Shown: in pieces, positions 1 to 58,433 of the stretch
How positions within the stretch are numbered: position 1 is the first letter of the stretch
Layout of the letters: every line of letters starts with the position of its first letter
Assembly (NCBI GenBank): GCA_022180725.1
Contig: BQMO01000020.1
Coordinates: 3,380 to 67,379, forward strand
DNA length: 64,000 nucleotides
Direction of reading: 5' to 3'
Source: Phycisphaerae bacterium
GTDB taxonomy: Bacteria > Planctomycetota > Phycisphaerae > Phycisphaerales > UBA1924
Notes under the pieces: generated by a model
Databases searched by the model: none
Told to the model about the DNA's origin: nothing
Seen by the model: only the letters and a program-made list of their open reading frames with translations
Program-made: the position numbers and the translations under genes

Positions 1-495
1 GGGTACACGGTCACGCTGAAGCGCGGCGACGAGCCGGGCTGGAGCCGCGCCGTGACCATTCACGGCCAAGGCACGCGGCTGCTGCCGGGCACGTACACCA
101 TCCGCCCGAAGCGCGACGCGCCGGCGCCCGAGGTGCTGCGGTGCGACGGGCTGCTCACCAGCGCGATCGTGCCCGTCGCGGACTTCGCGTACACCTTCGT
201 GTTGCGGGCCGACTGCAACGCCAACGGCATGGAGGACGAGGGCGAACTGCTCGCCGAGCCGGGCAAGGACCAGTGGCCGCTCAACGGCGTGATCGACGCG
301 TGCGAGGATTGCGAGGCCGACCTGAACTGCGACGGGGCGGAGAACCCGGGGGACGTGGAGATCATGGTGCGGGCGGTGGAGGGGGACTTCGCGGACTTCT
401 GCGGGTTCGACGCGGACTTCAACCACGACGGGGTGGTGAACGGGTTCGACATCGCGACGGTGGAAGACGTCGTCGGCGGCGGGCCGTGCCCGTAG
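1..495 (+). CDS. C-terminal part of a secreted protein ending in a dockerin-like module (5' end lies outside the window)
   Basis: Frame 1 is open from nt 1 (GYTVTLKRGDEPGW...), so the track ORF 52..495 is only its tail. The C-terminus CEDCEADLNCDGAENPGDVE...DADFNHDGVVNGFD...GGGPCP* contains the DxNxDGxxNxxD dockerin/EF-hand repeat twice and parallels the ends of the CDSs finishing at 3206, 5494 and 11446. Confidence 0.6.
   Translation, partial: GYTVTLKRGDEPGWSRAVTIHGQGTRLLPGTYTIRPKRDAPAPEVLRCDGLLTSAIVPVADFAYTFVLRADCNANGMEDEGELLAEPGKDQWPLNGVIDACEDCEADLNCDGAENPGDVEIMVRAVEGDFADFCGFDADFNHDGVVNGFDIATVEDVVGGGPCP
301..495 (+). repeat. dockerin-like C-terminal cassette, divergent copy (1 of 4)
   Basis: Same Cys...NCDG...DADFN(H/Q)DG...GGxxCP-stop layout as 3021-3206, 5309-5494 and 11261-11446, but clearly more diverged at the nucleotide level. 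Confidence 0.6.
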
Positions 496-517
496 CAGGG
501 GCACGCCCCGGGTCGTG

Positions 518-1408
518 TCAGGGGACCTCGAAGTACCGCGGGATGCTCTGCCCGTTGAAGGTCATCATCGTGTGCGAGTACGGCGAGACCTGCGGGTAGT
601 TCGTCGGCGGCTCATCCCACGAATCCAGGTACACGCGGATCAGGCCCGGGCCGGGCGGCACGAACTTCGCGTGCCCGTCGGTGAACGCGATGTTGTACCC
701 GTCCTTGCCGTGGTTGTTCCACGGGTCGGGGTAGTTGTTCACCCCGTCGGGGCGGCCGACGCCGGGCACCACCGACCCGTCGTTGTCGTTGTCCACGACG
801 AGGTAGCAGCGATCGGGGAACTGGATGCGCTTGTGGGTCTTGAGGGCGTTGCGCGTCGAGAGGTTGAAGACTTCCGTGAGGTCGTTGCGGCTCCAGCCGA
901 GTTGATCCCCGATGCTCACCGTCGTCGGCGTGCAGATCGTTGTGCCGTCGAGGTACTTGCCCGCGCTGAACCACGCGCGGATCTCGTAACTGTGCCCCCC
1001 GGCGTCGTCGTCGCGGTCCTTGGCGGCCCAAAACGTGTCGCGGATGAAGTCGCGCCCGTAGACCTGCTCGACAGGCTCCCCGCTTTCCTCGCTGAGCGTG
1101 AGGTTCTCGCGGATGCGGTTGCGGGTGCTGGGGCAGATGGCCGCCTGGTACGAGTCGAGGTACGTCGGGAAGAGCCACCCGATGTTGTCCTCCCAGTCGA
1201 AGAACGCGGGGATGAAGTACCCCGCGCGGACCTCGTTGGAGTACGTCATGCACGCCATGGCCAGTTGGCGCGTGTTCGAGAGGCACTTGGCCCGGCGGGA
1301 GGTTTCCCGCGCCCGGCCCAGCGAGGGCAGCAGGATGCCGATCAGCAGCGCAATGATCGCGATCACCACCAGCAACTCGATCAGCGTAAACCCGCGTCGG
1401 CGGTCCAT
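518..1408 (-). CDS. DUF1559-type pseudopilin-like protein (prepilin N-terminal cleavage/methylation domain plus H-X9-DG-like C-terminal motif)
   Basis: N-terminus [30 protein letters not shown] is a class III (type IV pilin/T2SS pseudopilin) signal. The C-terminal ...[20 protein letters not shown] resembles the H-X9-DG motif; by my count the spacing here is 10. Confidence 0.85.
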
Positions 1409-1532
1409 GCGTCACTCCCGGACCATGCAGTGTACCCGTCCTCGCGCCGCGGCGGAATCCTGATTCTTCTGGACGCCCACGCAAAACTCGCTACGCTGAG
1501 ACTCCCGCCCCGGGCGGATTCAGGAGCCTCCC

Positions 1533-3206
1533 ATGCGTTTGCTCGCTGCGTGCGCCGCCGTGATCATCTCGCCCGCCGTCCTGGCGCAGCCCTCGGTCTT
1601 CGTGGACTGCGCGGGCGCGAGCATCTCGTCGCTCTCGACGAATCCGCCCGATGTCGTCCGCACCAGCACCGGGACGATCGATGCCGCCGCGGGCTACACC
1701 TTCGCGTTCAACCCGATCGTCCGCGGCACGGGCTTCCTCGGCGTCATCGTCATCCCCAACGACACACCCCTAGGCGACGTGCTCAACGGGTTCGTGGTCG
1801 GCTCGCAGCGCACGCTCTATGGGGCCGTGCGCAACCCCGGGGCGGGCGTGCCGGTCACGCTCGACAGCGAGACCATCGCCGGCACGTTCTCGGGGATCAG
1901 CATCTCGCTGACGTTCGAGCAGTCCATCCTCGCCGACCGCCGCGGCCGCAGCGCTATCCGCAACATCGTGAAACCCTTCGGCCTGGGCATCAACGTCGTC
2001 TCCGGGGGCGGGGTCTTCCAGACGTTCAATCCCCCGCCCGCCACCGTGTCGGAGTTCCACTTCGAGGGCAATCTTCAATCCGTGCGCCAGTCGGGCATGG
2101 CGCCAGCCTCGGGTTTCGGGCTGCTGCGATACCTCGACGATTCCGCGTTCGGCCCGATCCTCGGCGGGCCCGCCGAGATCAACGCCTACCCCAACCCGCC
2201 CACGCCGCAGAACGTCACACAGGCACAATCATCCTTCGGGCTGGCGTCGTCGTTCGGGCTGCCCCTGCCCGGCGGCGAGGACGACGTCGTTTACAAGACC
2301 AGCCCGCCCCGCAACGCCGCCGACCCGTCGAACCAGGCCAAGTCCCGCGGCCTGGGGCTGGCCTTCTGGCCCAACACGCGCCACTACTGGCCCGAGGACC
2401 GCAACGGGCAATGGACCTTCGTCTGGGACCTGCTGATTCCATCCGCCGCGTGGGCCAATGAGTTCGCCGCGTGTCTCATCGAGGACAATCACAACAACGA
2501 CCAGTCCGCCGACGCCTTCATCCGCGTCGTGGGTGGGCAGGCCCGTTTCGGGTACCAGGTCCCCTTCGCCAATGACATCGCCCTGCCCGGCGTGCAGCCC
2601 AACCAGTGGTTCCGCCTCGCCATCGCCAGCGACGGGTACCGCACGAAGGTGGGCCGGGTCTTCGTCAACGGCGTGTACGTTGGCTCAACCGGGGGCGACT
2701 GGGTCTACGCCTCGTGTAACAAGGACAACCCGCGCTGGGGCGACGTGTCGTCCACCAACCCGACCGGCACCGCCGTGGCCCCGGCGACGTGGAACGCCTG
2801 GGGCCAGTTCCCCAGCCCCTGGGCGCAGGCGCCCAACGCCTCGCTCGCGCCGATGGCATCGACTGTCTGCCTTTTCGCCGACCTGCAAGGCCGCGGCGAG
2901 AGCATCTACATCGCCAACATGCTCTACACCGACGAAACGCTCACCGACGCTCAGATCGGCGCGCTGGGCGGTGTGAATGCCCGCGGCATCGTCCACCTGC
3001 GCCCGCCCCCCGCGCCCGCGTGCGACCCCGACGTGAACTGCGACGGGGCCGCCAACGGCGTGGACGTGGAGGTGCAGGAACTCGCCGTCGGCGGTGATTT
3101 CAGCGACTACTGCCAACCCGACGCGGACTTCAACCAGGACGGCGCGATCAACGGGTTGGACGTCGAGGCCGTCGAACTCGTCGTCGGCGGCGACCCGTGC
3201 CCGTAA
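1533..3206 (+). CDS. secreted protein, possible LamG/concanavalin-like central domain, dockerin-like C-terminal module
   Basis: Sec signal MRLLAACAAVIISPAVLAQ. The central segment ...NQWFRLAIASDGYRTKVGRVFVNGVYVGS... has LamG-like flavour (tentative). The last 61 aa are CDPDVNCDGAANGVDVEVQELAVGGDFSDYCQPDADFNQDGAINGLDVEAVELVVGGDPCP*. Confidence 0.75.
   Translation: MRLLAACAAVIISPAVLAQPSVFVDCAGASISSLSTNPPDVVRTSTGTIDAAAGYTFAFNPIVRGTGFLGVIVIPNDTPLGDVLNGFVVGSQRTLYGAVRNPGAGVPVTLDSETIAGTFSGISISLTFEQSILADRRGRSAIRNIVKPFGLGINVVSGGGVFQTFNPPPATVSEFHFEGNLQSVRQSGMAPASGFGLLRYLDDSAFGPILGGPAEINAYPNPPTPQNVTQAQSSFGLASSFGLPLPGGEDDVVYKTSPPRNAADPSNQAKSRGLGLAFWPNTRHYWPEDRNGQWTFVWDLLIPSAAWANEFAACLIEDNHNNDQSADAFIRVVGGQARFGYQVPFANDIALPGVQPNQWFRLAIASDGYRTKVGRVFVNGVYVGSTGGDWVYASCNKDNPRWGDVSSTNPTGTAVAPATWNAWGQFPSPWAQAPNASLAPMASTVCLFADLQGRGESIYIANMLYTDETLTDAQIGALGGVNARGIVHLRPPPAPACDPDVNCDGAANGVDVEVQELAVGGDFSDYCQPDADFNQDGAINGLDVEAVELVVGGDPCP
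3021..3206 (+). repeat. 186-nt dockerin-like C-terminal cassette (copy 2 of 4)
   Basis: Same length and frame as 5309-5494 and 11261-11446, with long identical nucleotide runs (e.g. gacgtcgaggccgtcgaactcgtcgtcggcgg). Confidence 0.8.
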
Positions 3207-3208
3207 CA

Positions 3209-3253
3209 CCCCCTCCCCGCGAAGCGCGGCACCTCCCCCTTCGGGGGAGGACC
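3209..3253 (+). repeat. GC-hairpin intergenic repeat, copy A (stem cctccccc / gggggagg, loop ttc/ttcg)
   Basis: ccccctccccgcgaagcgcggcacctcccccttcgggggaggacc is repeated almost verbatim at 3325-3370. Confidence 0.7.
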
Positions 3254-3263
3254 TGCTTCTGAT

Positions 3264-3281
3264 CCTCCCCTCAGGGGGAGG
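3264..3281 (+). repeat. related short GC hairpin (cctcccc tcag ggggagg)
   Basis: Perfect 7-bp stem of the same CCTCCCC/GGGGAGG composition, lying between copies A and B. Confidence 0.5.
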
Positions 3282-3324
3282 TGGCGAGTCCTCGAGCCGG
3301 AGGGGGTGCGGCGTGAACTTGATT

Positions 3325-3370
3325 CCCCCTCCGCCGCGGAGCGCGGCACCTCCCCCTTCGGGGGAGGACC
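3325..3370 (+). repeat. GC-hairpin intergenic repeat, copy B
   Basis: ccccctccgccgcggagcgcggcacctcccccttcgggggaggacc. The 3' 31 nt are identical to copy A. Confidence 0.7.
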
Positions 3371-3375
3371 CTCTT

Positions 3376-3400
3376 GGGTAGCCCGGCACTCCGTGCCGGG
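3376..3400 (+). repeat. REP-like 25-nt palindromic element (gggtagcccggcactccgtgccggg)
   Basis: 8-bp stem cccggcac/gtgccggg with loop tcc. Identical copy at 17747-17771, degenerate copy at 17788-17812, inverted copy with a compensatory stem change at 24317-24341. Shows up in the ORF track as the peptide GSPALRAG. Confidence 0.75.
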
Positions 3401-3526
3401 TATGAGCCCGGACATTCTCGGCCCTGGCGCACGACGAACATCCCTCTTGCACCGGGCCGAATATCGCGTATCGTGTTGGTGCTCGGCGTGTGTGGGAGAC
3501 CCCGGGCCGATACGAGGAGCACCGCC

Positions 3527-5494
3527 ATGACCACTCCCCGCACGCACCTTGCCTTGGCGATCATCGCCGCCGCTGGTTCCGCGTCCGCCGTGCTCGCCCA
3601 GCCCATGAACTGGGACGGTTCGTGCGGAACGAACCTCTGGAGTTCGTGCTGCTGGAACGGGCAGAGCGGCGGCGCGTGCCAGAACAACAACAACTTCGCC
3701 TCCGGCTCGGCGGCATGCCCCGACTGCCCGCCCTATCCCGGCGTCACCAACGACGTGGACATGGGTTGGGCCAGCGTGACGCTCGACGTGCCCGGCACGG
3801 TGCGTTCGATGTTCGCGTGGTCGCCCTTTACGCTGGCGAATGACCTTTACGCCGCCGACCAGGCCATGTTCGGCGGGCAACTCACCGTGATGCCCGGCGG
3901 CGCGATGCGTCACGGGGTGTTCATCTCCGAAGCAACCGCGACCATCGTGAGCGGGCTGGCGATCCGCGAGGGGGCCGAGTATCGCGTGCAGGGCGTCACC
4001 ACGTGGCAGGGCGGCGGTATCACGCTCGATGAATCCATGCTCAAGGTGCTGCCCGGCGCGACGTTCCGCTGCCAGGCCAACGCCGCCATCGCGCCCGAGT
4101 CTGTGCTCGGGCAGATCGTGAACACCGGCACGTTCCGCAAGGACTCGGGCACGGGCACGACGACCGTCAACGCGCTGGTCACGTCCAACGCGCTGATCTC
4201 CGCCGAGGTCGGCGTGCTCGACCTGGTGGCCGGGGGCACGCTGTCGGGATACATCCAGTCCCTCGCCGCGGGCACGCTGCGGCTGTCGGGGTCTTCGCCC
4301 TTCGTGGTGAACACCTCGCTGACCACCACGGGGGCCGGGCAGTTCCATGTCAACGCGCCGTTCACGGTGCCCGCCGGGGCCACCGCTTCGTCGAATCACG
4401 TCACCTTCGGCGCGAACACGCTCCGCGACGGGGCGGGCATGCACACCATCGTCGGCAACGCGTCCTTCCGCGGCACGTTCGACGGCGGTGGATCGACCGA
4501 GACCGAGCTCGGGTCGTTCCTCACGGTGCCCGCCTCGGCGTCCGTGTCGCTCCCCAATCACCTGCTCGTCCTCAACGGGCCGAGTTCCTGGGGCGCGAAC
4601 GTTGCGTTGGCGATGGGGGCGTCGTCCATGATCCGCAACCATGGTTCGCTGACCGTGAACGGGGACATCACCGCTACGGCGATTTCGCCGACGCCGGGCG
4701 TCGTTCGCAACCACGTCGATTGGATCAAACTCTCGGGCGCCGGCGACTCGCTGTTCGACGTTCAGTTCTTCAACCACGCCTCGTTCACGCTCTTCGCCGG
4801 CACGCTGTATTGCCGCGCCTTCACCCAGGTGAGCGGTTTCTCCATGCTCTCGGGCGGATCGCTGGGGATTCTCAATGGCGGAACCGCCGACATCCTCGCC
4901 GGTACTATCGGCGGCACGGCCGCGGTCCGCGGCTCGCTCCGCCTCGTCGTCGCGACGCTGGCCCCGGGCAACGCCGTCGGCGCGTTCGCCGTGCTCCGCG
5001 CCCCCGGCGGCGGGCCGGCCAACCTCACGTTTGACTCGCCGCAGTCGCGCCTGGAGATTGATATCAACGGCGTCAACCCCGGCTCGTTCGACACGGTCGT
5101 GGTCGAGGACCACGCCGTGCTCGCCGGGACCGTCCGCGTCACGTTCACCGGCGGGTTCGTCCCGCAAGTCGGCCAGTCGTTCCGCATCCTCAGCGCCGGC
5201 TCGATCGCGGGCGCGTTCCTCACGCTCGACAAAGTCAACGCGCCGCCCGATCTGCCCATGACGCTCGTCTACGACGCCGCGGGCGTCACGCTCGTGATCG
5301 GGCCGACGTGCGACCCCGACGTGAACTGCGACGGCGCCGTCAACGGCATCGATGTCGAGATCCAGGAACTCGCCGTCGGCGGGGACATGGCCGACTACTG
5401 CCTCCCCGACGCCGATTTCAATCAGGACGGCGCGGTGAACGGCACCGACGTCGAGGCCGTCGAACTCGCCGTCGGCGGGGGCGGTTGCCCGTAG
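3527..5494 (+). CDS. secreted beta-strand-repeat (autotransporter-passenger/adhesin-like) protein with dockerin-like C-terminal module
   Basis: ATG 3527 is preceded by GAGGAG (3514-3519). Sec signal MTTPRTHLALAIIAAAGSASAVLAQ. Gly/Thr/Asn-rich repeats (GTFRKDSGTGTTTVNALV...). Last 61 aa are CDPDVNCDGAVNGIDVEIQELAVGGDMADYCLPDADFNQDGAVNGTDVEAVELAVGGGGCP*. The track start 3374 (TTG) was rejected because it reads through the REP-like element. Confidence 0.75.
   Translation: MTTPRTHLALAIIAAAGSASAVLAQPMNWDGSCGTNLWSSCCWNGQSGGACQNNNNFASGSAACPDCPPYPGVTNDVDMGWASVTLDVPGTVRSMFAWSPFTLANDLYAADQAMFGGQLTVMPGGAMRHGVFISEATATIVSGLAIREGAEYRVQGVTTWQGGGITLDESMLKVLPGATFRCQANAAIAPESVLGQIVNTGTFRKDSGTGTTTVNALVTSNALISAEVGVLDLVAGGTLSGYIQSLAAGTLRLSGSSPFVVNTSLTTTGAGQFHVNAPFTVPAGATASSNHVTFGANTLRDGAGMHTIVGNASFRGTFDGGGSTETELGSFLTVPASASVSLPNHLLVLNGPSSWGANVALAMGASSMIRNHGSLTVNGDITATAISPTPGVVRNHVDWIKLSGAGDSLFDVQFFNHASFTLFAGTLYCRAFTQVSGFSMLSGGSLGILNGGTADILAGTIGGTAAVRGSLRLVVATLAPGNAVGAFAVLRAPGGGPANLTFDSPQSRLEIDINGVNPGSFDTVVVEDHAVLAGTVRVTFTGGFVPQVGQSFRILSAGSIAGAFLTLDKVNAPPDLPMTLVYDAAGVTLVIGPTCDPDVNCDGAVNGIDVEIQELAVGGDMADYCLPDADFNQDGAVNGTDVEAVELAVGGGGCP
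5309..5494 (+). repeat. 186-nt dockerin-like C-terminal cassette (copy 3 of 4)
   Basis: A manual alignment to 11261-11446 gives roughly 18 mismatches in 186 nt. It includes a 52-nt identical run, ttcaatcaggacggcgcggtgaacggcaccgacgtcgaggccgtcgaactcg. Confidence 0.8.
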
Positions 5495-8131
5495 TTACTT
5501 GGCCCGCGCGGCCCAGGCCTCGGCCTGATCGCGCTGCCCTGCGGCCGCGTAGTGCGTTTCCAAAGTCCGCGCCGCCGCTCGTGTGCGTTTGTCCGTCTCG
5601 CCCACCGTCTTCGCCAGCACGCGATAGCACTCGAGCAACTCGCGCTCCGCGTCGTCGGGCCGCCCGAGCAGGTCCAACCCCTTGCCCAGGTTCCCGCGGA
5701 ACACCCCGGTGAAGTACGCGTCCGGGCCGAGCGTCTCCACCGCCGTCTCGACGGCCTTGTGGAGATGGGCCTCGCCGGTGGTCGCGTCCCCCGTCTGCAC
5801 CAGGCGCAGGCCCACGGCGCTGTAGGAGATCAGCGTCCCGGTGTTTCGCTCGCCCAGCACGCGCCGCCGCGTTGCCAGCGCTCGGCGATCCAGGTCGAAC
5901 GCTTCATCCGCCCGCCCGAGGTCGCGGCAGAGCGCCGCGAGGTTTGACATAGTGACCAGCGTGTGCGGATGCTCCTCGGTGAGCACTTTGATGCGAAGGT
6001 CGAGCGTGCGGCGCATCAACCGCTCGGCCTCGTCGAACTTCCCCACCTCATGCATGGCTTTCGACAGGTTGTGCGCGAAGGTCAGCGACGTCGGGTTCTC
6101 CTCGCCCAGCGTCCGTCGGGCCGCCTCTTCCCCGCGACGCAGGATCGTTTCCGCCTCGTCGAAGCGGCCACGCTGAATCAGGAGTGTTCCCAGATTGCTG
6201 ATGGCGCTGAGGGTGTCGTCGTGCTCGTCGCCCAGCAGGGTCGAGAGGCCGTCGATCGCGCGGCGGTACATGCGTTCCGCCGTGTCGTACGCGCCCGTGC
6301 TGTGCAGCGCCGAGGCGTAGTTTCCGATCATCGTGAACTGTCCGGGCGTGAGGGCGCGTCCGCGCGCGTCGATCCGCGCGATCTCCTGCTCGTACAGCGA
6401 GAGCGCCTCGGGCACGCGCTCCATCTGACGCAGGCACACCGCCAGGTTGCCCACGGTGTCCTCGTACTCCGGCCCGTCGGCCGCCTGTGCGTCGAGTTGG
6501 TCCTGCATCGACGCGCGGAAGACGACCTCCGCCTCCGCGTTCTTCCCGCGGTAGTGCAGTGCCAGCCCCAGGATGTCGTTGGCCCGCACCCGGACCCGAT
6601 CGGCCAGCGGGAAGTTCGCTATCGCCTCTGAGGCTTCCCGGGCGATGGCCTCGCCCTCGTCCAGCTTGCCCTGACGGCAGCGGAGGTACCCGAACCGCGC
6701 GAGCGCACGCAGGGCTTCGGGGTGAGCGGGGCCGTGAATCTCCCGGCGGAGGTCGCGGGCGAGCGCCATGAGCGGCTCGGCCTGGTCGAACTGTCCGAGC
6801 GCGATGTACGTGTCGCCCATCGCCGCCGCCAGGATCGCCCGTGACGCCGGCGAGAGCGAGGTATCATCCAGCCGGAGCCGTGCCGAGCGGAGCAGATCGA
6901 CGACGCGCACGTTGCGCCCGTCGACGCCGGGGTTCGGCGAGGCAAGCATGTCGCGGAGGAACCCGACCGCCGCGGACTTCTCGTCGAGTTCCCGTCGTGC
7001 GTCCCCGAGTGATTGCCGGGCCTGCTGTTCCGATTCCGTGGCCCGCGCGTACAGCACGCTGAGCCAGATAGCGCCGCCGATCAGCACCGCCAGCACCACC
7101 ACCATGGCCGCGGCCTCGCGCCGGTGCCGCTTCAGCAGTTTGCGCAGCGTGTACCACGTGTGATCCTGGCGCGCGCGGATCGGTTCGTCCCGCAGCCACG
7201 CGCGGACGTCGTGCGCCAGGTCCATCGCGCTCTGATACCGCCGATCGGGTTCCTTCGCCAGGCACGTGAGCACCATGGTCGCCAAGTCCTCGTCGAGGCC
7301 GGGAGCGATTGACCGGGGCGGCACCGGGTCGTGCTCGCGGATGTGCCGGATCGTGCTCACGACGTCCCCCTCCACGGGGTACGGGAATCGCCCCGTCAGC
7401 ATCTGGTACAGCATCACGCCCAGCGCGTACACGTCGCTGCGCACGTCCACCGCCGCAGGGTCGCCCATCGTCTGTTCCGGGCTGGCCCACGGCAGCGAGC
7501 CGAAGATCTGCCCCGCCACGCTCACGTCGGGCACGTCCTGCCCGTGCGCCTTGGCCAGCCCGAAGTCCAGCACGCGGGGCTTGCCCGCGAGATCGATCCG
7601 CACGTTCGAGGGCTTCAGGTCGCGGTGGATCACGCCGCGCTGGTGCGCATGGGCCACCGCGTCGACGATGCCGGCGTACATCTCGACGCGCCGACATCGC
7701 TCTACCTCGTCCGCCGCACTCGTCCCCCGAGGGGCGGGCGTGGCGCGGAGCACCTCGTCGAGCGGCTGCCCGTCGACAAACTCCATCACCAGATAGGCCA
7801 GACCGTCCGTAGTGCCTCCGCGGTCATACACGCGAACGATGGCGGGGTGTCGCAGGCTGGCGGCGAGTTCGGCCTCGCGCTCGAACCGCGCCCGCGCCGT
7901 CGGGGAGGCCAACGCCCCACCCAGCAGCACCTTGATCGCCACCCGCTGCCGTGTCGACCGCTGCACCCCCGAGAAGACCACGCCCTGACCGCCGCGTTTG
8001 ATCTCTGTGAGGTCTTCATACCCCGGGATCGTCGGCACGACGATCCCCGCGTGAACCCGGCGGGCCAGCCCGAGGATCGATCCCTCGTCGTGGTACCACG
8101 CCGAGCCGGTGTTGTCCGCCGTCCGCGTCAT
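5495..8131 (-). CDS. Ser/Thr protein kinase with transmembrane segment and C-terminal TPR-repeat domain
   Basis: Hanks kinase motifs GGQGVVF, VAIKVL, HRDLKPSNV and DFGLAK. TM helix AAMVVVLAVLIGGAIWLSVLY. About 480 aa of TPR-like repeats follow. Starts 19 nt downstream of the ECF sigma gene. Confidence 0.9.
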   Translation of the reverse strand: MTRTADNTGSAWYHDEGSILGLARRVHAGIVVPTIPGYEDLTEIKRGGQGVVFSGVQRSTRQRVAIKVLLGGALASPTARARFEREAELAASLRHPAIVRVYDRGGTTDGLAYLVMEFVDGQPLDEVLRATPAPRGTSAADEVERCRRVEMYAGIVDAVAHAHQRGVIHRDLKPSNVRIDLAGKPRVLDFGLAKAHGQDVPDVSVAGQIFGSLPWASPEQTMGDPAAVDVRSDVYALGVMLYQMLTGRFPYPVEGDVVSTIRHIREHDPVPPRSIAPGLDEDLATMVLTCLAKEPDRRYQSAMDLAHDVRAWLRDEPIRARQDHTWYTLRKLLKRHRREAAAMVVVLAVLIGGAIWLSVLYARATESEQQARQSLGDARRELDEKSAAVGFLRDMLASPNPGVDGRNVRVVDLLRSARLRLDDTSLSPASRAILAAAMGDTYIALGQFDQAEPLMALARDLRREIHGPAHPEALRALARFGYLRCRQGKLDEGEAIAREASEAIANFPLADRVRVRANDILGLALHYRGKNAEAEVVFRASMQDQLDAQAADGPEYEDTVGNLAVCLRQMERVPEALSLYEQEIARIDARGRALTPGQFTMIGNYASALHSTGAYDTAERMYRRAIDGLSTLLGDEHDDTLSAISNLGTLLIQRGRFDEAETILRRGEEAARRTLGEENPTSLTFAHNLSKAMHEVGKFDEAERLMRRTLDLRIKVLTEEHPHTLVTMSNLAALCRDLGRADEAFDLDRRALATRRRVLGERNTGTLISYSAVGLRLVQTGDATTGEAHLHKAVETAVETLGPDAYFTGVFRGNLGKGLDLLGRPDDAERELLECYRVLAKTVGETDKRTRAAARTLETHYAAAGQRDQAEAWAARAK

Positions 8132-8150
8132 GGTGCTCCGGCCCCCGTGT

Positions 8151-8741
8151 TTACCCTTCGTCCGCGATCTGGGCCTCGATGATCGCCGAGAGGCGCTTCA
8201 GTATCCGGCTCTTGGCCTGATAGACCGCGTCGACGCTCATCGCCAGTTCCTTCGCCACCTCGCCCGCGCCTCGCCCTTCCACCGCATACATCGCGAATGC
8301 GCGACGATCCGCTTCGGCATACTCCGTCTCGATGACTCGCATCGCGCGCCGGTAGTGATACTGCCGCCATTCCTGCTCCCACGGGTCGTCGTCGCTGTCG
8401 ATGCCGACGCCCTCTGCCTGTGATAGTCCCCCCGCGGGAGGGTTCTGACGCCATTTCCGAGCAATCGCGTTGTTCACCACCGTCTTGAGGTATGATCGGA
8501 ACAGGCCTTTCCCGGGGTCATAGTTGAAGTTCCCCATCGCCTTCGACAGCGAGAGCAGCACCTCCTGCTCCACGTCCTCGATATCCGCCGCCTGAAGCCC
8601 CCGCCGGACACAAAACCCGCGGATCAACTCCGAATAGCGGCCTTTGAACTCCACCCAGGCGGCGAAATCCCCCACGTCGGCGAGCCGGGCAAGCAGAGTG
8701 GAATGAGTGGCGGTCTGGCTGAACACGCACTCAGAATACAC
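8151..8741 (-). CDS. ECF-type RNA polymerase sigma-70 family factor
   Basis: About 195 aa. Region-2-like DIEDVEQEVLLSLSKAMGNFNY...FRSYLKTVVNN and a region-4 HTH GEVAKELAMSVDAVYQAKSRILKRL. GTG start. No anti-sigma gene adjacent. Confidence 0.85.
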   Translation of the reverse strand: MYSECVFSQTATHSTLLARLADVGDFAAWVEFKGRYSELIRGFCVRRGLQAADIEDVEQEVLLSLSKAMGNFNYDPGKGLFRSYLKTVVNNAIARKWRQNPPAGGLSQAEGVGIDSDDDPWEQEWRQYHYRRAMRVIETEYAEADRRAFAMYAVEGRGAGEVAKELAMSVDAVYQAKSRILKRLSAIIEAQIADEG

Positions 8742-8983
8742 GATGAATCAACGGGTTACGAGAAAAACCAATCCGCGGCCGACCTGTACCGCCGGCGATT
8801 CGTCACAAATTCACATTTACGTCCTGAAACGTCGTGGCCCATGTCAATCCCGTCCACGTGCTTGAGTTTCAAACGGAACCGCGAGCAACACAGACAGATG
8901 TTAGGGGTTAGTTCATACGTCTTTGATCGACTGAAACCACGATCCTGACGGCTGCGAATGGACATGACCGGGCGGGTTGCTGA

Positions 8984-11446
8984 TTGGTGCTCAGAATCAT
9001 GATGTTTCGTGATAGCCTGGCACGCAGGGGTGTGGACATGTCGAGCGATCTCTACGCTGTGCGGGCCTCTTGGCTCGCGTGGATTCCGTGCTTGGCACTT
9101 TCCGCCGCGACGGCGGCGCAGACAGTCAGGCCGACCGGGCACGACGGCGAGATGGGCTGGGAGGCCTGCTCATGCGGCAAGGAAATGATGATCGCCGTCC
9201 GTGCCGCGTTGGGCCTCACCATCAACGAGCCGGGCACGCCCGCGTTCTCTGACCGTGAGGCCTTCACGGACACCGATGTCCTCCACAACGAGGCTGACAT
9301 CGAAGTCTTCCCGGCGACCGCCACGATCGCGGGGTCCAACACCATCACGGTCAAGTCGCTCGTCCCAGGACTGACCCAGTTCACGTTCATGCTCCGCGGG
9401 AACTTCTCCGTGCAGCGCGGGTTGTCCGGCAATGCCGCGGACAACAACCGCGTTACACTCAACGGCGGCACCGTCGCCGTCTGCTCCACCCCACCCGCCG
9501 ACAACTCCAGTTACGCCCGCACCGTCACCCTCGACCGCGCGTACGGCGTAGGCGAGGTATTCACCGTGCGCATCGACTACACCGGCCCGGCGGTTTCGCG
9601 CGGGTTCGGGTCGATCGAGTTCGGCACGCAGAACGGCGTCGACGTGGTCGCCTCGCTCAGCGAGCCGTACTACGCCGCCACGTGGGTGCCTGTGAAGGAC
9701 GGCGACGTACTTCTCCCCGGCAACAACGCCGACAAGGCGACCTGGGAACTGGCCGTCACCGCGCCCGACTCGTTGACGACGACCGCGAACGGCCTGTTGC
9801 AGGGAATCGACATCGTGGCCGGCGGGAAGAAGAAGTACCGCTGGGCGACGGCGTACCCCATGTCCACGTACCTCGGCGCCTTCTGCACCACCGCGTACGA
9901 CTTCTGGTCGCAGACCTACACGTACCCGCTCCCCGGCGGGGGCACGGGCACCATGCCCGTTGAGTTCTACATCTACCCTGCCAGCAACACCGCGGGTAAC
10001 CGCGCCGCGTGGGAGAAGTGCATCCCGATGCTCGCGGCCTTCCGCGGGGTCTACGGCGAGTACCCGTTCGTCAACGAGAAGTACGGCATCTACCAGTTCC
10101 CCTTCGGCGGGGGCATGGAGCACCAGACCAACACGGGCCAGGGCACCTTCGCCGAGTCCGTCACCGCGCACGAACTCGCCCATCAATGGTGGGGCGACAA
10201 CGTCACCTGCAAGACGTGGAATCACATCTGGCTGAACGAGGGTTCCGCGACGTACGGCGAGGCGCTGTGGGAAGAGCGCAAGCCCGGGAGTTTGGGGCTG
10301 CCCGCGCTCCAGGCCGCCATGAACGCCCGCCGACCCACGCAGGTCAACAACTCCGTGTATGTCCCCGCCACGAACGATCTCAACCGCATCTTCAGCAGCA
10401 ACTTCACCTACCGCAAGGGCGGGTGGGTGCTTCACCAACTCCGCCGCATTATCGGCGACGCCGCGTTCTTCCAGACCTTGCAGGACTACCGGGCCGCGTT
10501 CGGCGGTTCGGCGGCCACCACAGAAGACCTTCGTGACGTCGCCTCCGCCGCCGCCGGCGTGGACCTGACCAACTACTTCCAGCAGGCCGTGTACGGCATC
10601 GGCGCGCCGTCGTACGCCTTCGGCTGGCAGCCCGCCGTCATCAACGGGCAGCAGTACCTTCGGCTGTCCATCCGCCAGACGCAGAACAGCGCCTGGCCGG
10701 GGACCGGCACGCCGAGCAACGCCTTTGCCTACCCGATCGACCTGGCCATCACCACCGACCAGGGCGTCGAGTCGCGCGTGGTGGTCAGCGATGCGCGCAC
10801 CGAGCACTACGTGATCCCGCTGTCCGCCGCGGCCACGGGCGTCGCGCTCGACCCCAACGACTGGCTGCTCATCGTCGCGAAAGACGCCGAGGCGTACGTC
10901 AACGGCCCGGCGAAGATTGTCCAGGCCTCGCCCGCGCCGGAGGGGCTCCTCGACAACCCGCCCTCGACGCTCACCGTCACCTTCAGCGAGCCGGTGAATA
11001 CGCAGGGGTCGTACTACACCCTGACCGGCCCGGGTGGGCCGGTCGCCGCCTCGTACGCTTACAACGCCGCGTCGTACACCGTGACGCTCACGCCGGCGGC
11101 CCCGCTTGCGCCGGGCGCATACTCGCTCACGGTATCGCCGAGCGTCACTGCCGTCGCCTCGGGGCAGAGCCTCGACGGCGAGATCATCGCCGGGGTGTTG
11201 CCGTCGGGCGATGGGCAACCCGGCGGGGCCGCCATCATCGCGTTCACCATCGGCGCGCCGTGCGATGCCGACGTCAACTGCGACGGCGCCGTCAACGGGA
11301 TCGATGTCGAAATCCAGGAACTCGCCGTCGGCGGTGATTTCGCCGACTACTGCCAGCCCGACGCGGACTTCAATCAGGACGGCGCGGTGAACGGCACCGA
11401 CGTCGAGGCCGTCGAACTCGTCGTCGGCGGGGGTGAGTGCCCGTAA
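8984..11446 (+). CDS. M1-family zinc aminopeptidase with Ig-like spacer and dockerin-like C-terminal module
   Basis: GGMEHQT exopeptidase motif and HELAHQWWGD-x18-WLNEGSATY (HExxH...E). Signal-like ...WIPCLALSAATAAQ. C-terminus CDADVNCDGAVNGIDVE...DADFNQDGAVNGTDVE...GGGECP*. A more likely start is ATG 9038 (MSSDLYAV...), which is preceded by AGGGG. Confidence 0.85.
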   Translation: MVLRIMMFRDSLARRGVDMSSDLYAVRASWLAWIPCLALSAATAAQTVRPTGHDGEMGWEACSCGKEMMIAVRAALGLTINEPGTPAFSDREAFTDTDVLHNEADIEVFPATATIAGSNTITVKSLVPGLTQFTFMLRGNFSVQRGLSGNAADNNRVTLNGGTVAVCSTPPADNSSYARTVTLDRAYGVGEVFTVRIDYTGPAVSRGFGSIEFGTQNGVDVVASLSEPYYAATWVPVKDGDVLLPGNNADKATWELAVTAPDSLTTTANGLLQGIDIVAGGKKKYRWATAYPMSTYLGAFCTTAYDFWSQTYTYPLPGGGTGTMPVEFYIYPASNTAGNRAAWEKCIPMLAAFRGVYGEYPFVNEKYGIYQFPFGGGMEHQTNTGQGTFAESVTAHELAHQWWGDNVTCKTWNHIWLNEGSATYGEALWEERKPGSLGLPALQAAMNARRPTQVNNSVYVPATNDLNRIFSSNFTYRKGGWVLHQLRRIIGDAAFFQTLQDYRAAFGGSAATTEDLRDVASAAAGVDLTNYFQQAVYGIGAPSYAFGWQPAVINGQQYLRLSIRQTQNSAWPGTGTPSNAFAYPIDLAITTDQGVESRVVVSDARTEHYVIPLSAAATGVALDPNDWLLIVAKDAEAYVNGPAKIVQASPAPEGLLDNPPSTLTVTFSEPVNTQGSYYTLTGPGGPVAASYAYNAASYTVTLTPAAPLAPGAYSLTVSPSVTAVASGQSLDGEIIAGVLPSGDGQPGGAAIIAFTIGAPCDADVNCDGAVNGIDVEIQELAVGGDFADYCQPDADFNQDGAVNGTDVEAVELVVGGGECP
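11261..11446 (+). repeat. 186-nt dockerin-like C-terminal cassette (copy 4 of 4)
   Basis: See 5309-5494. Same length, frame and terminal tgcccgta(a/g). Confidence 0.8.
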
Positions 11447-11456
11447 CGCGTTCGCG

Positions 11457-12044
11457 CTAGGGGTGCGGCGCGATGTACGAGTCCCGGCAGTGCTCGGAGA
11501 TGGGTTGCGAGAACTCGTACACGTTCATGCTCTTGATGGGCGGCGAGTAGATGTGCAGGGTGATCAGGTCCTGCCCCGGGGCCTGCATGTTCGCCACTTC
11601 GTGGATGTCCGCGTCATCGGCCGCGCAGATGTACCCCGGCCTCATCACGTTCGTCGCCACGGGGCAGATCAGCCCCGAGGGTGTGTCTTTGAATCGAATC
11701 TCCGTGCCCTCGCCCTCGACCACCTTGAAGGCGCAGGAGACGCCCCTGTGATCGTGGATCGGGGTGCGGTCGGCCGAACGCCAGCACAGGGCCAGCAACT
11801 CGTACCAATCCGTCCGGCGGATGGTGTTGCGCTTGTACCCCTTCTGCCCGAACTCGCATGAGGGGGCGATGTCGGCGCGGGTCAGGTCTACCGAGGCCAG
11901 CAGCTTCGTGAGCACCGCCAGGTCGGCCCGCCCGGTGAGCGAATCGAGGTACTCGACCAAGGGGCCGAGTTTGGCGTACGTCTGCCCGCCGCGCGAGCAA
12001 CAACACATCGACGGGGTGGCCTGGGTGGGCGAAGTCTGGGTCAC
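11457..12044 (-). CDS. cysteine dioxygenase type I-like cupin protein
   Basis: YELLALCWRSADRTPIHDHRGVSCAFKVVEGEGTEIRF follows the CDO pattern L..CW..G..S.IHDH..S.C..K.L.G. About 195 aa. Confidence 0.7.
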   Translation of the reverse strand: MTQTSPTQATPSMCCCSRGGQTYAKLGPLVEYLDSLTGRADLAVLTKLLASVDLTRADIAPSCEFGQKGYKRNTIRRTDWYELLALCWRSADRTPIHDHRGVSCAFKVVEGEGTEIRFKDTPSGLICPVATNVMRPGYICAADDADIHEVANMQAPGQDLITLHIYSPPIKSMNVYEFSQPISEHCRDSYIAPHP

Positions 12045-12106: not shown

Positions 12107-13339
12107 TTACAGGCGCGCTTCCGCGTCGAGTTCAGTCCGCAGAGCCTTGGCCAGGTACTCATACTGCGCCCGCGAGTTGTAGACCTGGGTGCTGATGCGT
12201 ACGAATCGTTCGGGCTTGCCCGCCAGCCCCCAGACGGGCACCTGAATGCCCCAGTTGGCCAGCAGCGCGTCCTGGAGCGCGTCGTGGTACGCGGTGGGCC
12301 GGGCCGCGAGGCGCACACGCCGGGCCTCGTCGTGCGGCGGGAGGACGATCGTGGCGATCGACCCGATCATCGACTCCGGGGCCGGCGCCTCGACCCCGAG
12401 GGATTCGCAGAGCATGCCCCGCGCCCGCACGCACAGGTCGTGGTTGTGCGTCATGACCGCAGGCCAGCCCCCGCCGAGATCCGCCATCACCTCGATGGCC
12501 TTGGGGATGCTGTAGAGCGCGGTGTAATCCTGCGTGCCGACGTAGTCGAACTCGGTGAGGAACTGCGATCGGCCCGGCTTGGGCTTCTCCGCATTGTTCG
12601 AGAGCACCAGCGGACGGAACGCCTCGCGCCGGTCGTCTCGCACGTACAAAAACGCCGAGCCTTTGGGTGAGCAGACCCATTTATGACAGTTGGCGGTGTA
12701 GTACGCGGGCCGGAGGGCGCCAAGGTCGAGCGTGGGGATCATGCCCGGGGCGTGGGCGCCGTCAACAAGCACGTCAACCCCGCGTGCCTGGAGCGACGCC
12801 ACCACGCGCTCGACGGGCAGGACCAGACCCGTGGGGCTGGTGACGTGGCTGACGAGCGCCAGCCGCGTGCGCGGCGTGACCTTCGCCTCGTACGCCGAGA
12901 CGACCTGCGCCGAATCGCGGATGGGGAACGGCACGTCGGCATAGGTGACGCTCGCGCCGGCCCGTGCCGCGGCCCGACGGACGCTGTTCTGGCACGCCGG
13001 GTACTCCTGCGCGTTCATCAGGATTTCGTCGCCTGGTTCCAATCGGACATTTGAGAGCACGGTCGCCACGGCGATGGAGGCGTTGGGGAGCAGCGCCAAC
13101 CCGCCCTGATCGCACCGAACGAAGCGGGCCAACGCGTGACGCGCGTGGTCCATCAACCCTTCGTGCCGCGTGACGTAGTGTCGCACCAGCTCGCGCTCCA
13201 TCTGAGCGCGCTGTTGCGTCTGCTCCTCCAGCACCGCCCGCGGGCACGAGCCGAACGAACCGTGGTTCAGGTACACGACGTCGTGTTCGTGGTCCCAGTG
13301 CGAAGCCAGCGGGGAAGGCGGGGGCAAAGATCGGGTCAT
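12107..13339 (-). CDS. class V PLP-dependent aminotransferase (isopenicillin-N-epimerase / cysteine(sulfinate) desulfurase-like)
   Basis: YLNHGSFG N-terminus, DGAHAPG, and NCHKW (PLP-lysine context). 410 aa. Confidence 0.8.
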   Translation of the reverse strand: MTRSLPPPSPLASHWDHEHDVVYLNHGSFGSCPRAVLEEQTQQRAQMERELVRHYVTRHEGLMDHARHALARFVRCDQGGLALLPNASIAVATVLSNVRLEPGDEILMNAQEYPACQNSVRRAAARAGASVTYADVPFPIRDSAQVVSAYEAKVTPRTRLALVSHVTSPTGLVLPVERVVASLQARGVDVLVDGAHAPGMIPTLDLGALRPAYYTANCHKWVCSPKGSAFLYVRDDRREAFRPLVLSNNAEKPKPGRSQFLTEFDYVGTQDYTALYSIPKAIEVMADLGGGWPAVMTHNHDLCVRARGMLCESLGVEAPAPESMIGSIATIVLPPHDEARRVRLAARPTAYHDALQDALLANWGIQVPVWGLAGKPERFVRISTQVYNSRAQYEYLAKALRTELDAEARL

Positions 13340-17865: not shown

Positions 17866-18618
17866 TCAGCCCAACTCCACGCTCCAGTACGCGTGGTCGA
17901 GGAAGGCCTTCCACGACTGGTACTTCTCGTGCCCCAGCCGCAGCGAGATCAGCGGATTCCGCCGCGGCTTCACCGGCGGGCGGATCAACTTCATCCGCGC
18001 CTGGTCGGGCGTGCGCCCGCCCTTGCGTGCGTTGCAGCGGATGCACGAGCACACCAGGTTCTCCCACGTGTCATTCCCGCCCTGTGAGCGCGGCAGCACG
18101 TGGTCGATCGAAAGATCGTTCGTCGGGTAGATGCGCCCGCAGTACTGGCACTTGTTCCGATCCCGCGCGAACAGATTGCGCCGGTTCAACTTCACGTTCT
18201 GGTCGGGCAGGCGGTCGTACCCGAGCAGGCGGATGATCCGCGGCACGGCGATGTCGAACCGCACCGTGCGCACCCAGTCGTGCCGGTCGCGTTCGAACTC
18301 CCGCTGGAGCGCCGAAACCTCGATCCATGATTCGAGGTTGTACGTGAGGTACTTCCCCGGGCCGTCGCCGTCCGGTTCGACGTGGATGATCTCCGCGATC
18401 TCCCGCGCGAGCAGGCAGAACGCGCGCTTCGCCGACACGATCCGCATCGCCGCGTAGGCCCGGTTCAGCACCAGCACCTTGCTGCTCAACCCGCCGGCCA
18501 CGTCCGTGCCCGCGAGCACCGCGGCCAACTCCGTCGGCAAGGATCCACCCTCGGGGCCATCCTCCGGATGAGCCTCGCTCCCATCGTCCTGCGGTATGTC
18601 CCGGTTCCGGCGGTGCAT
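17866..18618 (-). CDS. HNH endonuclease-domain protein
   Basis: CQYCGRIYPTNDLSIDHVLPRSQGGNDTWENLVCSCIRCNARKGGRTP is a canonical HNH/CCCH motif. The N-terminal VLVLNRAYAAMRIVSAKRAF segment is typical of stand-alone HNH proteins. Confidence 0.75.
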   Translation of the reverse strand: MHRRNRDIPQDDGSEAHPEDGPEGGSLPTELAAVLAGTDVAGGLSSKVLVLNRAYAAMRIVSAKRAFCLLAREIAEIIHVEPDGDGPGKYLTYNLESWIEVSALQREFERDRHDWVRTVRFDIAVPRIIRLLGYDRLPDQNVKLNRRNLFARDRNKCQYCGRIYPTNDLSIDHVLPRSQGGNDTWENLVCSCIRCNARKGGRTPDQARMKLIRPPVKPRRNPLISLRLGHEKYQSWKAFLDHAYWSVELG

Positions 18619-58384: not shown

Positions 58385-58433
58385 GTTCCAACTCCCGGGG
58401 ATGGTGTGAGTTTGCAACGAATTCCATCGAATC

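Follow-up and report, generated by a model that had tools for sequence, protein, structure and literature searches.

Four plus-strand coding sequences (CDSs), ending at positions 495, 3206, 5494 and 11446, lie in the 64 kb window, that is, the whole stretch of DNA analysed, and the ORF listing and translations show that each closes with the same terminal module. A six-frame regex scan returned exactly these four copies and no others, in agreement with the earlier note on this DNA. The features are as follows.

1..495, plus strand: 3' end (165 codons) of CDS 1, cut by the window edge; full protein P0151 / GJQ30803.1, 878 aa
310..492, plus strand: module copy 1, from C1 to the final Pro, 61 aa; stop 493-495
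1533..3206, plus strand: CDS 2, 557 aa, secreted, with a weak LamG-like region
1533..1589, plus strand: predicted Sec signal peptide of CDS 2, MRLLAACAAVIISPAVLAQ, read from the sequence, with the cleavage site placed by eye
3021..3203, plus strand: module copy 2, 61 aa; stop 3204-3206
3527..5494, plus strand: CDS 3, 655 aa, secreted, identical to GJQ30806.1 / P0002
3527-3601, plus strand: signal peptide of CDS 3, MTTPRTHLALAIIAAAGSASAVLAQ
5309..5491, plus strand: module copy 3, 61 aa; stop 5492-5494
9038..11446, plus strand: CDS 4, 802 aa, identical to HBSAPP03_26930 / P0164
9038-9121, plus strand: signal peptide of CDS 4, MSSDLYAVRASWLAWIPCLALSAATAAQ
11261..11443, plus strand: module copy 4, 61 aa; stop 11444-11446

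CDS 3 and CDS 4 are given with their deposited starts (3527 and 9038), and their ORFs open at 3374 and 8984, respectively. The N-termini of the three complete CDSs are signal-peptide-like, ending ...AVLAQ, ...AVLAQ and ...ATAAQ, as had been claimed, and the same holds for full-length P0151, which begins MFRTVLAILTVVCFTAGLAAAQ and whose residues 715-812 are 100% identical to CDS 1. The four protein bodies, described earlier as unrelated, share no blastp similarity at E<=1e-3. The earlier domain labels fared unevenly: the M1 aminopeptidase of CDS 4 was recovered (PF01433, E=3e-27) and is followed in Pfam by an Ig-like CopC/Big_5 domain and then the module; the LamG-like label of CDS 2 corresponds to a match below threshold (Laminin_G_3, E=0.033); and for CDS 3 the dockerin is the sole Pfam match, leaving the beta-strand-repeat adhesin label without backing. 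An orthologue of CDS 2 is found at locus L026 of the Phycisphaerales genome CAJPFG01, with 78% identity in the body.

The 61-aa module has the consensus C-D-x-D-V-N-C-D-G ... C-x-x-D-A-D-F-N-x-D-G ... G-G-x-x-C-P-stop. Compared with the first copy, the most divergent of the four, the 66-aa tails show 62-88% identity, and 34 columns are invariant; pairs of window modules differ by 7-16 synonymous codons out of 61 and are therefore not fresh copies. The earlier suggestion that the module is dockerin-like was confirmed at the levels of sequence and fold. Three of the four window proteins exceed the Pfam Dockerin_1 (PF00404) cut-off of 22.9 bits, with 24.9 for CDS 1, 25.9 for CDS 3 and 25.3 for CDS 4, and CDS 2 reaches 19.0 bits, under the cut-off; in the module family as a whole, 51 of 81 members match. 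The family profile, searched against PDB sequences, returned dockerins only (best E=4e-7, positions 6-60). The AlphaFold2 model (pLDDT 95.1, pTM 0.82) places helices at residues 16-26 and 48-58, and a Foldseek search of the PDB gave 31 matches (TM 0.55-0.71), every one of them a dockerin taken from a cohesin-dockerin complex. On the module, C1 is residue 1, Ca loop 1 spans residues 4-15 with C2 at residue 7, C3 is residue 31, Ca loop 2 spans residues 36-47, and C4 and the final Pro are residues 60 and 61; each loop is followed by a helix with an acidic face (D-V-E-x-x-E). Ligand positions 1, 3, 5 and 12 are invariant or nearly so in both loops, which suggests that the module would bind calcium. 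The module is thus a member of the dockerin family, with two loop-helix units and putative Ca2+ sites. It shares with the cellulosomal type I dockerins (PF00404; PDB 6KG9, 4FL4, 1OHZ) the two D-x-N-x-D-G-x-x-N-x-x-D loops with a helix after each, the fold, a Pfam match at threshold, an internal two-fold symmetry and the principle of an N-to-C clasp.

In known dockerins this intramolecular clasp is non-covalent, links one of positions -1 to -3 with a residue at the C-terminus that is frequently Pro, and increases stability (PMC3821032). C1 of the module lies at position -2 relative to the first Ca loop; 206 of 210 tails carry it, and C4 occurs in all 210. The number of cysteines in a tail is almost always even: C2 and C3 co-occur (phi 0.71), as does an optional additional pair (phi 0.93), and two-Cys sub-types retain C1 and C4 alone. 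Co-occurrence and the analogy with known clasps point to C1–C4 and C2–C3 disulfides, so that the module would apparently be closed by a covalent version of the dockerin clasp, with, in the window sub-type, a probable second disulfide from loop 1 to the inter-repeat linker; both features set it apart from type I dockerins. The earlier note had taken the terminal placement and the Cys-Pro ending as arguments against a binding domain. The cysteine bracket is better read as a covalent clasp: the protein would end at Cys-Pro because the domain stops there, with C1 at the clasp site of known dockerins. The last module of a protein is a common place for a dockerin.

Across 1.84 billion proteins searched, all 129 single-domain matches were located at the extreme C-terminus, with none internal and none N-terminal, as the earlier note's proposal of a C-terminal tag had anticipated. 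Sampled loci contain 123-128 distinct module ORFs, 123 of them in CAJPFG01, where at least 123 paralogues are spread over ~0.7 Mb. A signal-peptide-like N-terminus is present in 101 of the 112 module ORFs with a complete 5' end, and most full-length module proteins thus carry the signal peptide expected of them. The cargo comprises peptidases, oxidases, and lectin-like, Ig-like and propeller proteins, in contrast to the glycoside hydrolases of type I systems.

Of 120 orthologues of the M1 peptidase, 115 finish with a dockerin-like tail that has a Cys within the last three residues, and ~102 of these 115 also have a Cys just upstream of the first loop. Many of these tails match NCBIfam NF041540 (31-75 bits), a family curated as 'GC-type dockerin domain-anchored protein', with matches ending <=2 residues from the last residue. 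The NF041540 HMM gave no match to the window proteins or other four-Cys members even at E<=1, and hhalign of alignment A2 against the GC-type alignment matched C1 in both and gave a probability of 96.6% (E=7e-10). On profile comparison, the window's module type is an unmodelled sister sub-family of NF041540 'dockerin_GC', and in orthologous proteins it replaces the NF041540 domain at the same position. Both are extreme C-terminal, two-fold dockerin-like repeats of ~60 aa from Phycisphaerae, in which one Cys precedes loop 1 at -2 and another is terminal. They differ at the C-terminus, which is G-G-x-x-C-P in the window module and G-C in the GC type. The window module also has C2 in loop 1 and C3 in the linker as a second Cys pair, carries acidic D-V-E-x-x-E rather than D-x-x-x-F-F helices, and scores higher against canonical Dockerin_1. 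The term 'GC-type dockerin' was not found in the literature searched.

Modules cluster by genome and not by cargo: same-genome paralogues share 82-92% module identity, whereas modules of orthologues share 57-62%, with bodies 69-78% identical. In a third genome, five adjacent secreted enzymes carry their own homogenised variant, and two discrete module classes occur within a single genome. Clustering by genome implies a common, genome-specific partner, which the sequences suggest would be shared by the cargos; gene conversion, as a form of concerted evolution, could partly explain the pattern in place of co-evolution with a receptor. We consider it probable, though far from certain, that the module is a dockerin with a covalent clasp that docks Sec-exported cargo to a shared, genome-specific envelope receptor. 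That it is instead a partnerless C-terminal cap, stabilised by Ca2+ and disulfides and protecting or folding secreted proteins, seems very improbable. Disulfides and Ca sites would suit an oxidising extracellular milieu, and the stability gained from clasps (PMC3821032) fits such a role, but a cap gives no reason for homogenisation within a genome alongside divergence between orthologues, and would need neither a strictly C-terminal position nor exposed helix residues that are invariant over >100 unrelated cargos.

The earlier note likened the module to C-terminal sorting signals. As with T9SS CTD, PEP-CTERM, GlyGly-CTERM and LPXTG domains, it is the last element of signal-peptide proteins, occurs on many unrelated cargos (>100 substrates in a genome) and is swapped between orthologues in the manner of a 'choice of anchor'. 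It could accordingly be proposed that Phycisphaerae possess dedicated machinery for export or processing, which reads the module as a sorting or attachment signal, as in T9SS, PEP-CTERM/exosortase or GlyGly-CTERM/rhombosortase, and cleaves it or attaches its terminal Cys covalently to the envelope. Strict terminality, a near-terminal Cys kept across very different sub-types of one cargo and its upstream counterpart are in keeping with this proposal, as is a cargo repertoire similar to that of surface proteins that undergo sorting (7 of 81 family members have GBD_T9SS_assoc; there are weak choice-of-anchor J/X matches), and a docking receptor and a sorting enzyme or similar recognition machinery would leave identical genome-specific signatures. 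We nevertheless regard it as unlikely: the C1-C4 bracket and the even numbers of cysteines explain the terminal Cys as half of a structural disulfide; the module forms a well-folded, helical dockerin with intact, putatively Ca-binding sites, not a beta-sandwich, and has no transmembrane stretch, basic tail or motif of the known signals; no NCBIfam sorting-signal model matches it; no sortase-like candidate or cognate enzyme was seen near module genes in four genomes; and ordinary Cys-free dockerins occupy the same site in a few M1 orthologues (P0246, P0248 and P0271). The argument from terminal placement and Cys-Pro towards a sorting signal is not supported, and the idea of an anchor tag stands as reasonable, given that curators call the sister family 'anchored'; surface anchoring by the module is plausible.

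Consistent with the earlier note, no cohesin was detected in 20 window genes, including all immediate neighbours; nor was one found in ten large secreted proteins of a related genome, in orthologue neighbourhoods of two other genomes, or in a phmmer scan of 760 kb, which has low sensitivity. These searches, which covered parts of the genomes with low power, returned neither a cohesin nor a sorting enzyme. The lack of a cohesin suits the sorting proposal and distinguishes this planctomycete system from type I dockerins. It would also suit docking of the module, by way of Ca2+ bridges, to a non-protein part of the envelope (polysaccharide, LPS or peptidoglycan) in place of a cohesin-type protein, as would its strongly acidic helix faces and two Ca sites. 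Dockerins without cohesins occur in many non-cellulosomal genomes, which again fits such binding. We rate this as distinctly improbable, since fast, genome-specific helix divergence, with two discrete classes in one genome, is more typical of protein-protein co-evolution, and none of the PDB matches offers an example of a dockerin fold that binds carbohydrate.

Docking to an envelope receptor would proceed from Sec export of the cargo to folding of the module with Ca2+ and its oxidation, either periplasmic or extracellular; the planctomycete envelope has two membranes. The two conserved acidic helix faces would then dock the cargo non-covalently to the shared receptor, cohesin-like or of an unrecognised kind, and >100 proteins of the cargo classes above could be displayed at the surface through one module. 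A related proposal is the 'planctosome' (Andrei et al. 2019, PMC6461901), in which non-cellulosomal pairing of cohesins with dockerins would hold dockerin-bearing peptidases of Phycisphaerae at the cell surface; class and peptidase cargo are shared with the present system. As described in the portion of that paper considered here, the planctosome belongs to Nemodlikiaceae and has identifiable cohesins and few components, and that portion makes no mention of a Cys clasp, a strict terminal Cys or >100-gene expansions. Another precedent from the class is a scaffoldin with two cohesins, reported from Limihaloglobus (PMC11557425).

The four plus-strand CDSs ending at 495, 3206, 5494 and 11446 share a 61-aa terminal module behind unrelated bodies, as the earlier note had described; comparison of the four bodies confirmed that they are unrelated, and a six-frame pattern scan of the 64 kb returned exactly four module copies. 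The window (G+C content 68.8%) is part of a 68-kb contig in the MAG 'Phycisphaerae bacterium HBSAPP03', and two of its proteins are identical to deposited entries (GJQ30806.1 and HBSAPP03_26930). The module tails show 62–88% identity to the first tail, with 34 invariant columns. Since 7–16 of the 61 codons differ synonymously between module pairs, the similarity does not stem from recent copying, and recent duplication or gene conversion as its sole source was rejected. The signal-peptide-like N-termini ending A-x-x-A-Q were recovered on all three complete CDSs and also on the first CDS, truncated here, in its full-length version (P0151, 878 aa). As for the labels previously given to the bodies, M1 peptidase is solid, whereas 'LamG-like' remained sub-threshold and 'adhesin-like' had no Pfam match. 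Between its catalytic domain and the module, the M1 peptidase carries one further domain:

~10910–11180 (residues 643–726 of the ORF opening at 8984): Ig-like domain, scored as CopC and Big_5

The names 'copper-binding protein CopC' and 'copper resistance protein CopC', given to orthologues of this peptidase by several sources, are probably misannotations.

The earlier description of the module as dockerin-like is supported by Pfam, by profile comparison with the PDB, by an AlphaFold2 model and by the positions of the Ca ligands. PF00404 (Dockerin_1; gathering score 22.9 bits) scored 24.9, 25.9 and 25.3 bits in three window proteins and 19.0 bits, under the gathering score, in the LamG-like protein; it matches 51 of 81 module-family members at E ≤ 1e-3. 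Type I dockerins (PF00404) are defined by Ca ligands at loop positions 1, 3, 5, 9 and 12. The module contains two 12-residue Ca-binding loops, each followed by a helix and related by two-fold symmetry. D at position 1, N at 3, D at 5 and D at 12 show little or no variation in either repeat. Searched against PDB sequences, a family profile of 61 members found only dockerins, the best match being Clostridium acetobutylicum CaDoc0917 (E = 4e-7), which spans profile positions 6–60 and thus leaves the first Cys and the terminal G-G-x-C-P outside the canonical dockerin core. AlphaFold2 modeling with the 61-sequence alignment gave two loop-helix units with helices at 16–26 and 48–58 (pLDDT 95.1, pTM 0.82), a result that depends on alignment depth, as the four window sequences gave a pLDDT of 37. 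All 31 Foldseek matches of the model in the PDB were dockerins from cohesin–dockerin complexes (TM up to 0.71, probability up to 1.00, 22–36% identity), with E-values of only ~0.07, the domain being small. The profile matches, the modeled fold, its structural neighbors and the near-invariant Ca-ligand positions identify the module as a genuine dockerin. The same MAG also encodes a sub-type in which the sixth position of each Ca loop, normally a conserved Gly, is Phe (C-D-x-D-V-N-C-D-F-A-L-D-G-F-D), carried by database proteins P0009 (HBSAPP03_16140), P0014, P0022–P0025 and others; Phe at this position is unusual in an EF-hand-like loop.

The module cysteines (C1–C4, at positions 1, 7, 31 and 60) were surveyed in 210 non-redundant tails, fewer than half of them database-derived and pre-selected for a terminal Cys; C1 is present in 206 of these and the terminal C4 in all 210. 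Among 128 ORFs taken from genome loci, which were unselected for Cys, every complete one ends in Cys followed by 0–2 residues, and the two exceptions are both cut by contig ends. C2 and C3 tend to be present or absent as a pair (phi 0.71), and so do the two cysteines of an optional third pair, in mid-helix 1 and the linker (phi 0.93); two-Cys sub-types retain just C1 and C4. With rare exceptions, the number of Cys residues in 115 orthologue tails is even. The simplest reading of this pairing would be disulfides C1–C4 and C2–C3. C1 occupies position −2, counted from the first Ca loop. For dockerins, Slutzki et al. showed an 'intramolecular clasp', which joins residues −1 to −3 to a C-terminal residue, frequently proline, and stabilizes the Ca-bound dockerin fold and cohesin binding (PMC3821032). 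By analogy, a putative covalent clasp is the best reading of the C...C-P bracket, and it would explain why the polypeptide stops at Cys-Pro. The terminal placement and the Cys-Pro ending had been taken as signs of a sorting signal and not of a binding domain; this view lacks support, as both features would follow from a covalently clasped dockerin. A dockerin clasped by a disulfide in nature may also prove interesting to those who engineer stable cohesin–dockerin parts.

Close orthologues of the M1 peptidase number ~120 across Phycisphaerae (50–70% identity, ~780–800 aa). In 115 of the 120, a Cys lies within the final three residues and is preceded by a two-fold dockerin-like repeat, the sequence sub-types of which differ strikingly; in the equivalent place, three others have ordinary dockerins without Cys. 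Many of the tails end in ...G-C and match NF041540, the NCBIfam model 'GC-type dockerin domain-anchored protein' (cut-off 29 bits): six of ten orthologue tails scored over the cut-off (31–75 bits) and a seventh under it, with matches ending at the last residue or at most 2 residues short of it. The model gave no match at E ≤ 1 to the four window proteins and eight other members, nor to three further orthologue tail types, and no NCBIfam model matches the window module. The two types are alike in their extreme C-terminal position and alternate at the C-terminus of orthologous M1 peptidases; they differ in that the GC-type ends with Gly-Cys at the last residue, whereas the window module ends G-G-x-x-C-P, with Cys penultimate after a variable residue. 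Canonical dockerins are nearer to the window module than to the GC-type. Alignment of the two types with hhalign gave 96.6% probability (E = 6.8e-10) with C1 in register. Given this homology, the absence of NF041540 matches and the GC-type tails on M1 orthologues, the window module is, judged by sequence, an unmodelled sister sub-family of the curated C-terminal anchor domain. The idea of a C-terminal anchoring tag is therefore reasonable and agrees with the NCBI name of the sister family ('anchored'). The term 'GC-type dockerin' was not found in the literature searched. A sub-type profile would label hundreds of proteins as probably surface-associated.

Established C-terminal signals and other Ca-binding folds fit the module poorly. 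In PEP-CTERM, GlyGly-CTERM and LPXTG signals, a hydrophobic transmembrane helix and then a basic tail come after a short motif; these signals were rejected, as the acidic end of the module contains neither a hydrophobic stretch or transmembrane helix nor a basic tail, and no match to NCBIfam sorting-signal models was reported for the window proteins and eight other members. The T9SS C-terminal domain is a beta-sandwich of ~80–100 aa, whereas the window module is helical, modeled as loop-helix-loop-helix, and has no match to the NCBIfam or Pfam models of such tails. Thrombospondin type 3 (TSP_3) and EF-hand domains were rejected because the window proteins gave a match to neither at E ≤ 1 and the fold differs, an EF-hand being helix-loop-helix and the window module loop-helix; weak EF-hand matches occur in GC-type tails only. 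RTX proteins of type I secretion lack an N-terminal signal peptide and carry Gly-rich nonapeptide repeats, whereas all four window proteins have N-terminal signal peptides and nonapeptide repeats are absent.

To assess the distribution of the module, 1.84 billion cluster representatives were searched exhaustively with HMMER, which returned 534 matches at E ≤ 1e-3, of which 119 reached E ≤ 1e-10. The best 150 of the 534, together with seven fragments from a later search, were re-scored locally, and in this sample the module was C-terminal in 129 of 129 single-module proteins, as the earlier note had proposed. These have 0–6 residues past the alignment end, the longer gaps belonging to a sub-type that still ends in Cys. 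In the 27 multi-module proteins of the sample, the modules are dockerin repeats of the ordinary tandem kind, most of them without Cys and rich in K/N. Word-indexed protein search is ill-suited to such a short domain, returning nothing for a 64-aa module and nine short fragments for the 61-sequence profile. Two narrow peptide patterns, run against one genome per species, gave 61 loci, 59 of them in the related Phycisphaerales genome CAJPFG01, where 123–128 distinct module-bearing ORFs lie in the ~0.7 Mb sampled. Named members belong to Phycisphaerae or Phycisphaerales throughout, with one exception (L019, DATLZF010000445.1), a 2.6-kb contig in the Methylomirabilota MAG DATLZF01 (labelled Methylomirabolota); as its module is typical of Phycisphaerae, this is probably a binning error.

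By a crude hydrophobicity test, 101 of the 112 locus ORFs with complete 5' ends have signal-peptide-like N-termini; so do 83 of 106 database members, many of the rest being visibly truncated. The cargo comprises Ig and galactose-binding domains, DUF5122 and Kelch propellers, M36, M23 and S8 peptidases, FG-GAP and beta-helix domains, multicopper oxidases, a PETase-like hydrolase and many adhesin-like proteins; neither glycoside hydrolases nor cohesins occur among the 25 most frequent of 44 families. In public records, module proteins are mostly 'hypothetical protein', and the tail is missed by the specific NCBIfam model and, often, by Pfam. The module marks a very large exoproteome, with at least 123 genes in the ~0.7 Mb covered in CAJPFG01.

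Clear orthologues of two window proteins exist in CAJPFG01: for the LamG-like protein the bodies share 78% identity, and for the M1 peptidase 69%. The modules of these two window proteins share 57–62% identity with those of the orthologues and 82–92% with paralogous modules of their own genome, and the CAJPFG01 modules behave likewise. In a third Phycisphaerae genome (L063, 10001–22178), five consecutive secreted enzymes, namely an M1 peptidase, two ~1000-aa multicopper oxidases, a DUF5122 propeller protein and a PETase/chlorophyllase-like hydrolase, share a homogenized 4–6-Cys variant particular to that genome, ending ...DIDALAQVVGGAPCP, and their cytoplasmic neighbors have no module. CAJPFG01 loci L001–L060 contain two discrete classes, one of ~76 modules ending '...ETEEQRVNGAPC'-stop and the other of ~38 ending '...EAVEQxVNGxPCP'-stop, along with a few hybrids of first-class sequence with a C-P ending and a minor third class ending ...L(V/T)(N/L)xC-stop. 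These classes may reflect two or three receptor specificities.

Concerted genome-specific evolution combined with synonymous divergence is as expected if the copies must all fit one or two common partners, and it speaks against the module being a stabilizing cap only. Cohesin–dockerin pairs show comparable species specificity. We hypothesize that the putative function is Ca-dependent, non-covalent docking of the very large exoproteome to a genome-specific envelope receptor, which is the most likely reading and one we consider probable. It is unlikely that a dedicated sorting or attachment machinery acts on the module. Just as doubtful is the broader proposal that the Cys-terminated Phycisphaerae tails (C-P, GC-type and several others) are the recognition domain of a class-specific sorting or attachment system and not cohesin ligands. 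Such a system could have more than 100 substrates per cell, possibly through a route coupled to outer-membrane secretion or, alternatively, through covalent or disulfide exchange via the terminal Cys; were this so, the rapid genome-specific divergence would represent co-evolution with its machinery.

For the receptor-docking reading, two precedents exist within the class, one of them in Limihaloglobus sulfuriphilus, which we take to belong to Phycisphaerae (order Sedimentisphaerales). This bacterium was reported with a two-cohesin scaffoldin and placed only in the PVC superphylum (PMC11557425); the other is a cohesin–dockerin 'planctosome' displaying peptidases, proposed for Nemodlikiaceae (PMC6461901). 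Pfam analysis of 20 window genes, including all immediate neighbors, agreed with the earlier remark that no cohesin-like gene is visible in the window and revealed no sorting-enzyme gene among them; these neighbors are otherwise regulatory and housekeeping. Pfam likewise detected no cohesin or sorting enzyme in the ten largest secreted module-free CAJPFG01 proteins. Single-sequence phmmer, a search of low sensitivity, gave no cohesin match in all ORFs of 760 kb or in the module-family members themselves, using as queries a CipA cohesin validated against PDB 1AOH and a putative Ruminococcus flavefaciens CohE sequence. Neither a cohesin nor a sorting enzyme was found around the orthologues in two other genomes. 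Three large CAJPFG01 proteins (~690–820 aa) with a signal peptide, no Pfam domain and no module are candidate unrecognized receptors:

L035, 3114–5576, plus strand
L036, 6497–8617, plus strand
L005, 6567–8645, plus strand

The module family is essentially unstudied, and the placement of proteins on the planctomycete cell surface is, to our knowledge, poorly understood. The family offers a defined bait for the receptor or machinery. If the receptor is a cohesin, this would be a large non-cellulosomal cohesin–dockerin display system in a two-membrane bacterium; if it is not, a new anchoring route.

Some other genes of the window, these all on the minus strand, are the following:

518–1408, minus: DUF1559 protein with a prepilin-type N-methylation motif (pilin/pseudopilin-like), between two module genes
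5495–8131, minus: Ser/Thr protein kinase with a long TPR region
8151–8741, minus: sigma-70 family (ECF-like) factor
11457–12044, minus: cysteine dioxygenase type I
12107–13339, minus: class-V aminotransferase/desulfurase-like gene
17866–18618, minus: stand-alone HNH endonuclease (250 aa), among housekeeping genes
56954–58510, minus: unusually long 518-aa protein, with a thioredoxin/redoxin (AhpC-TSA) domain as its C-terminal third

Genes similar to the DUF1559 type by their N-terminus also occur near module genes at CAJPFG01 loci L010, L015, L045 and L046. This proximity could be a hint that the cargo is exported by type II-like secretion or, as the DUF1559 family is hugely expanded in planctomycetes, it could be due to chance. 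The kinase gene lies directly downstream of the sigma factor gene, and the pair, situated amid the four module genes, is oriented divergently from the M1 peptidase gene; beside the orthologous peptidases in two other genomes the arrangement is not retained. A link of the module to the DUF1559 gene, the kinase or the sigma factor was rejected, since synteny is not conserved in other genomes. The cysteine dioxygenase and aminotransferase genes, located right after the last module gene, may form a cysteine or sulfinate catabolic pair. The 518-aa redoxin protein is a putative extracytoplasmic thiol-disulfide oxidoreductase and, if so, might be relevant to a disulfide-rich exoproteome.
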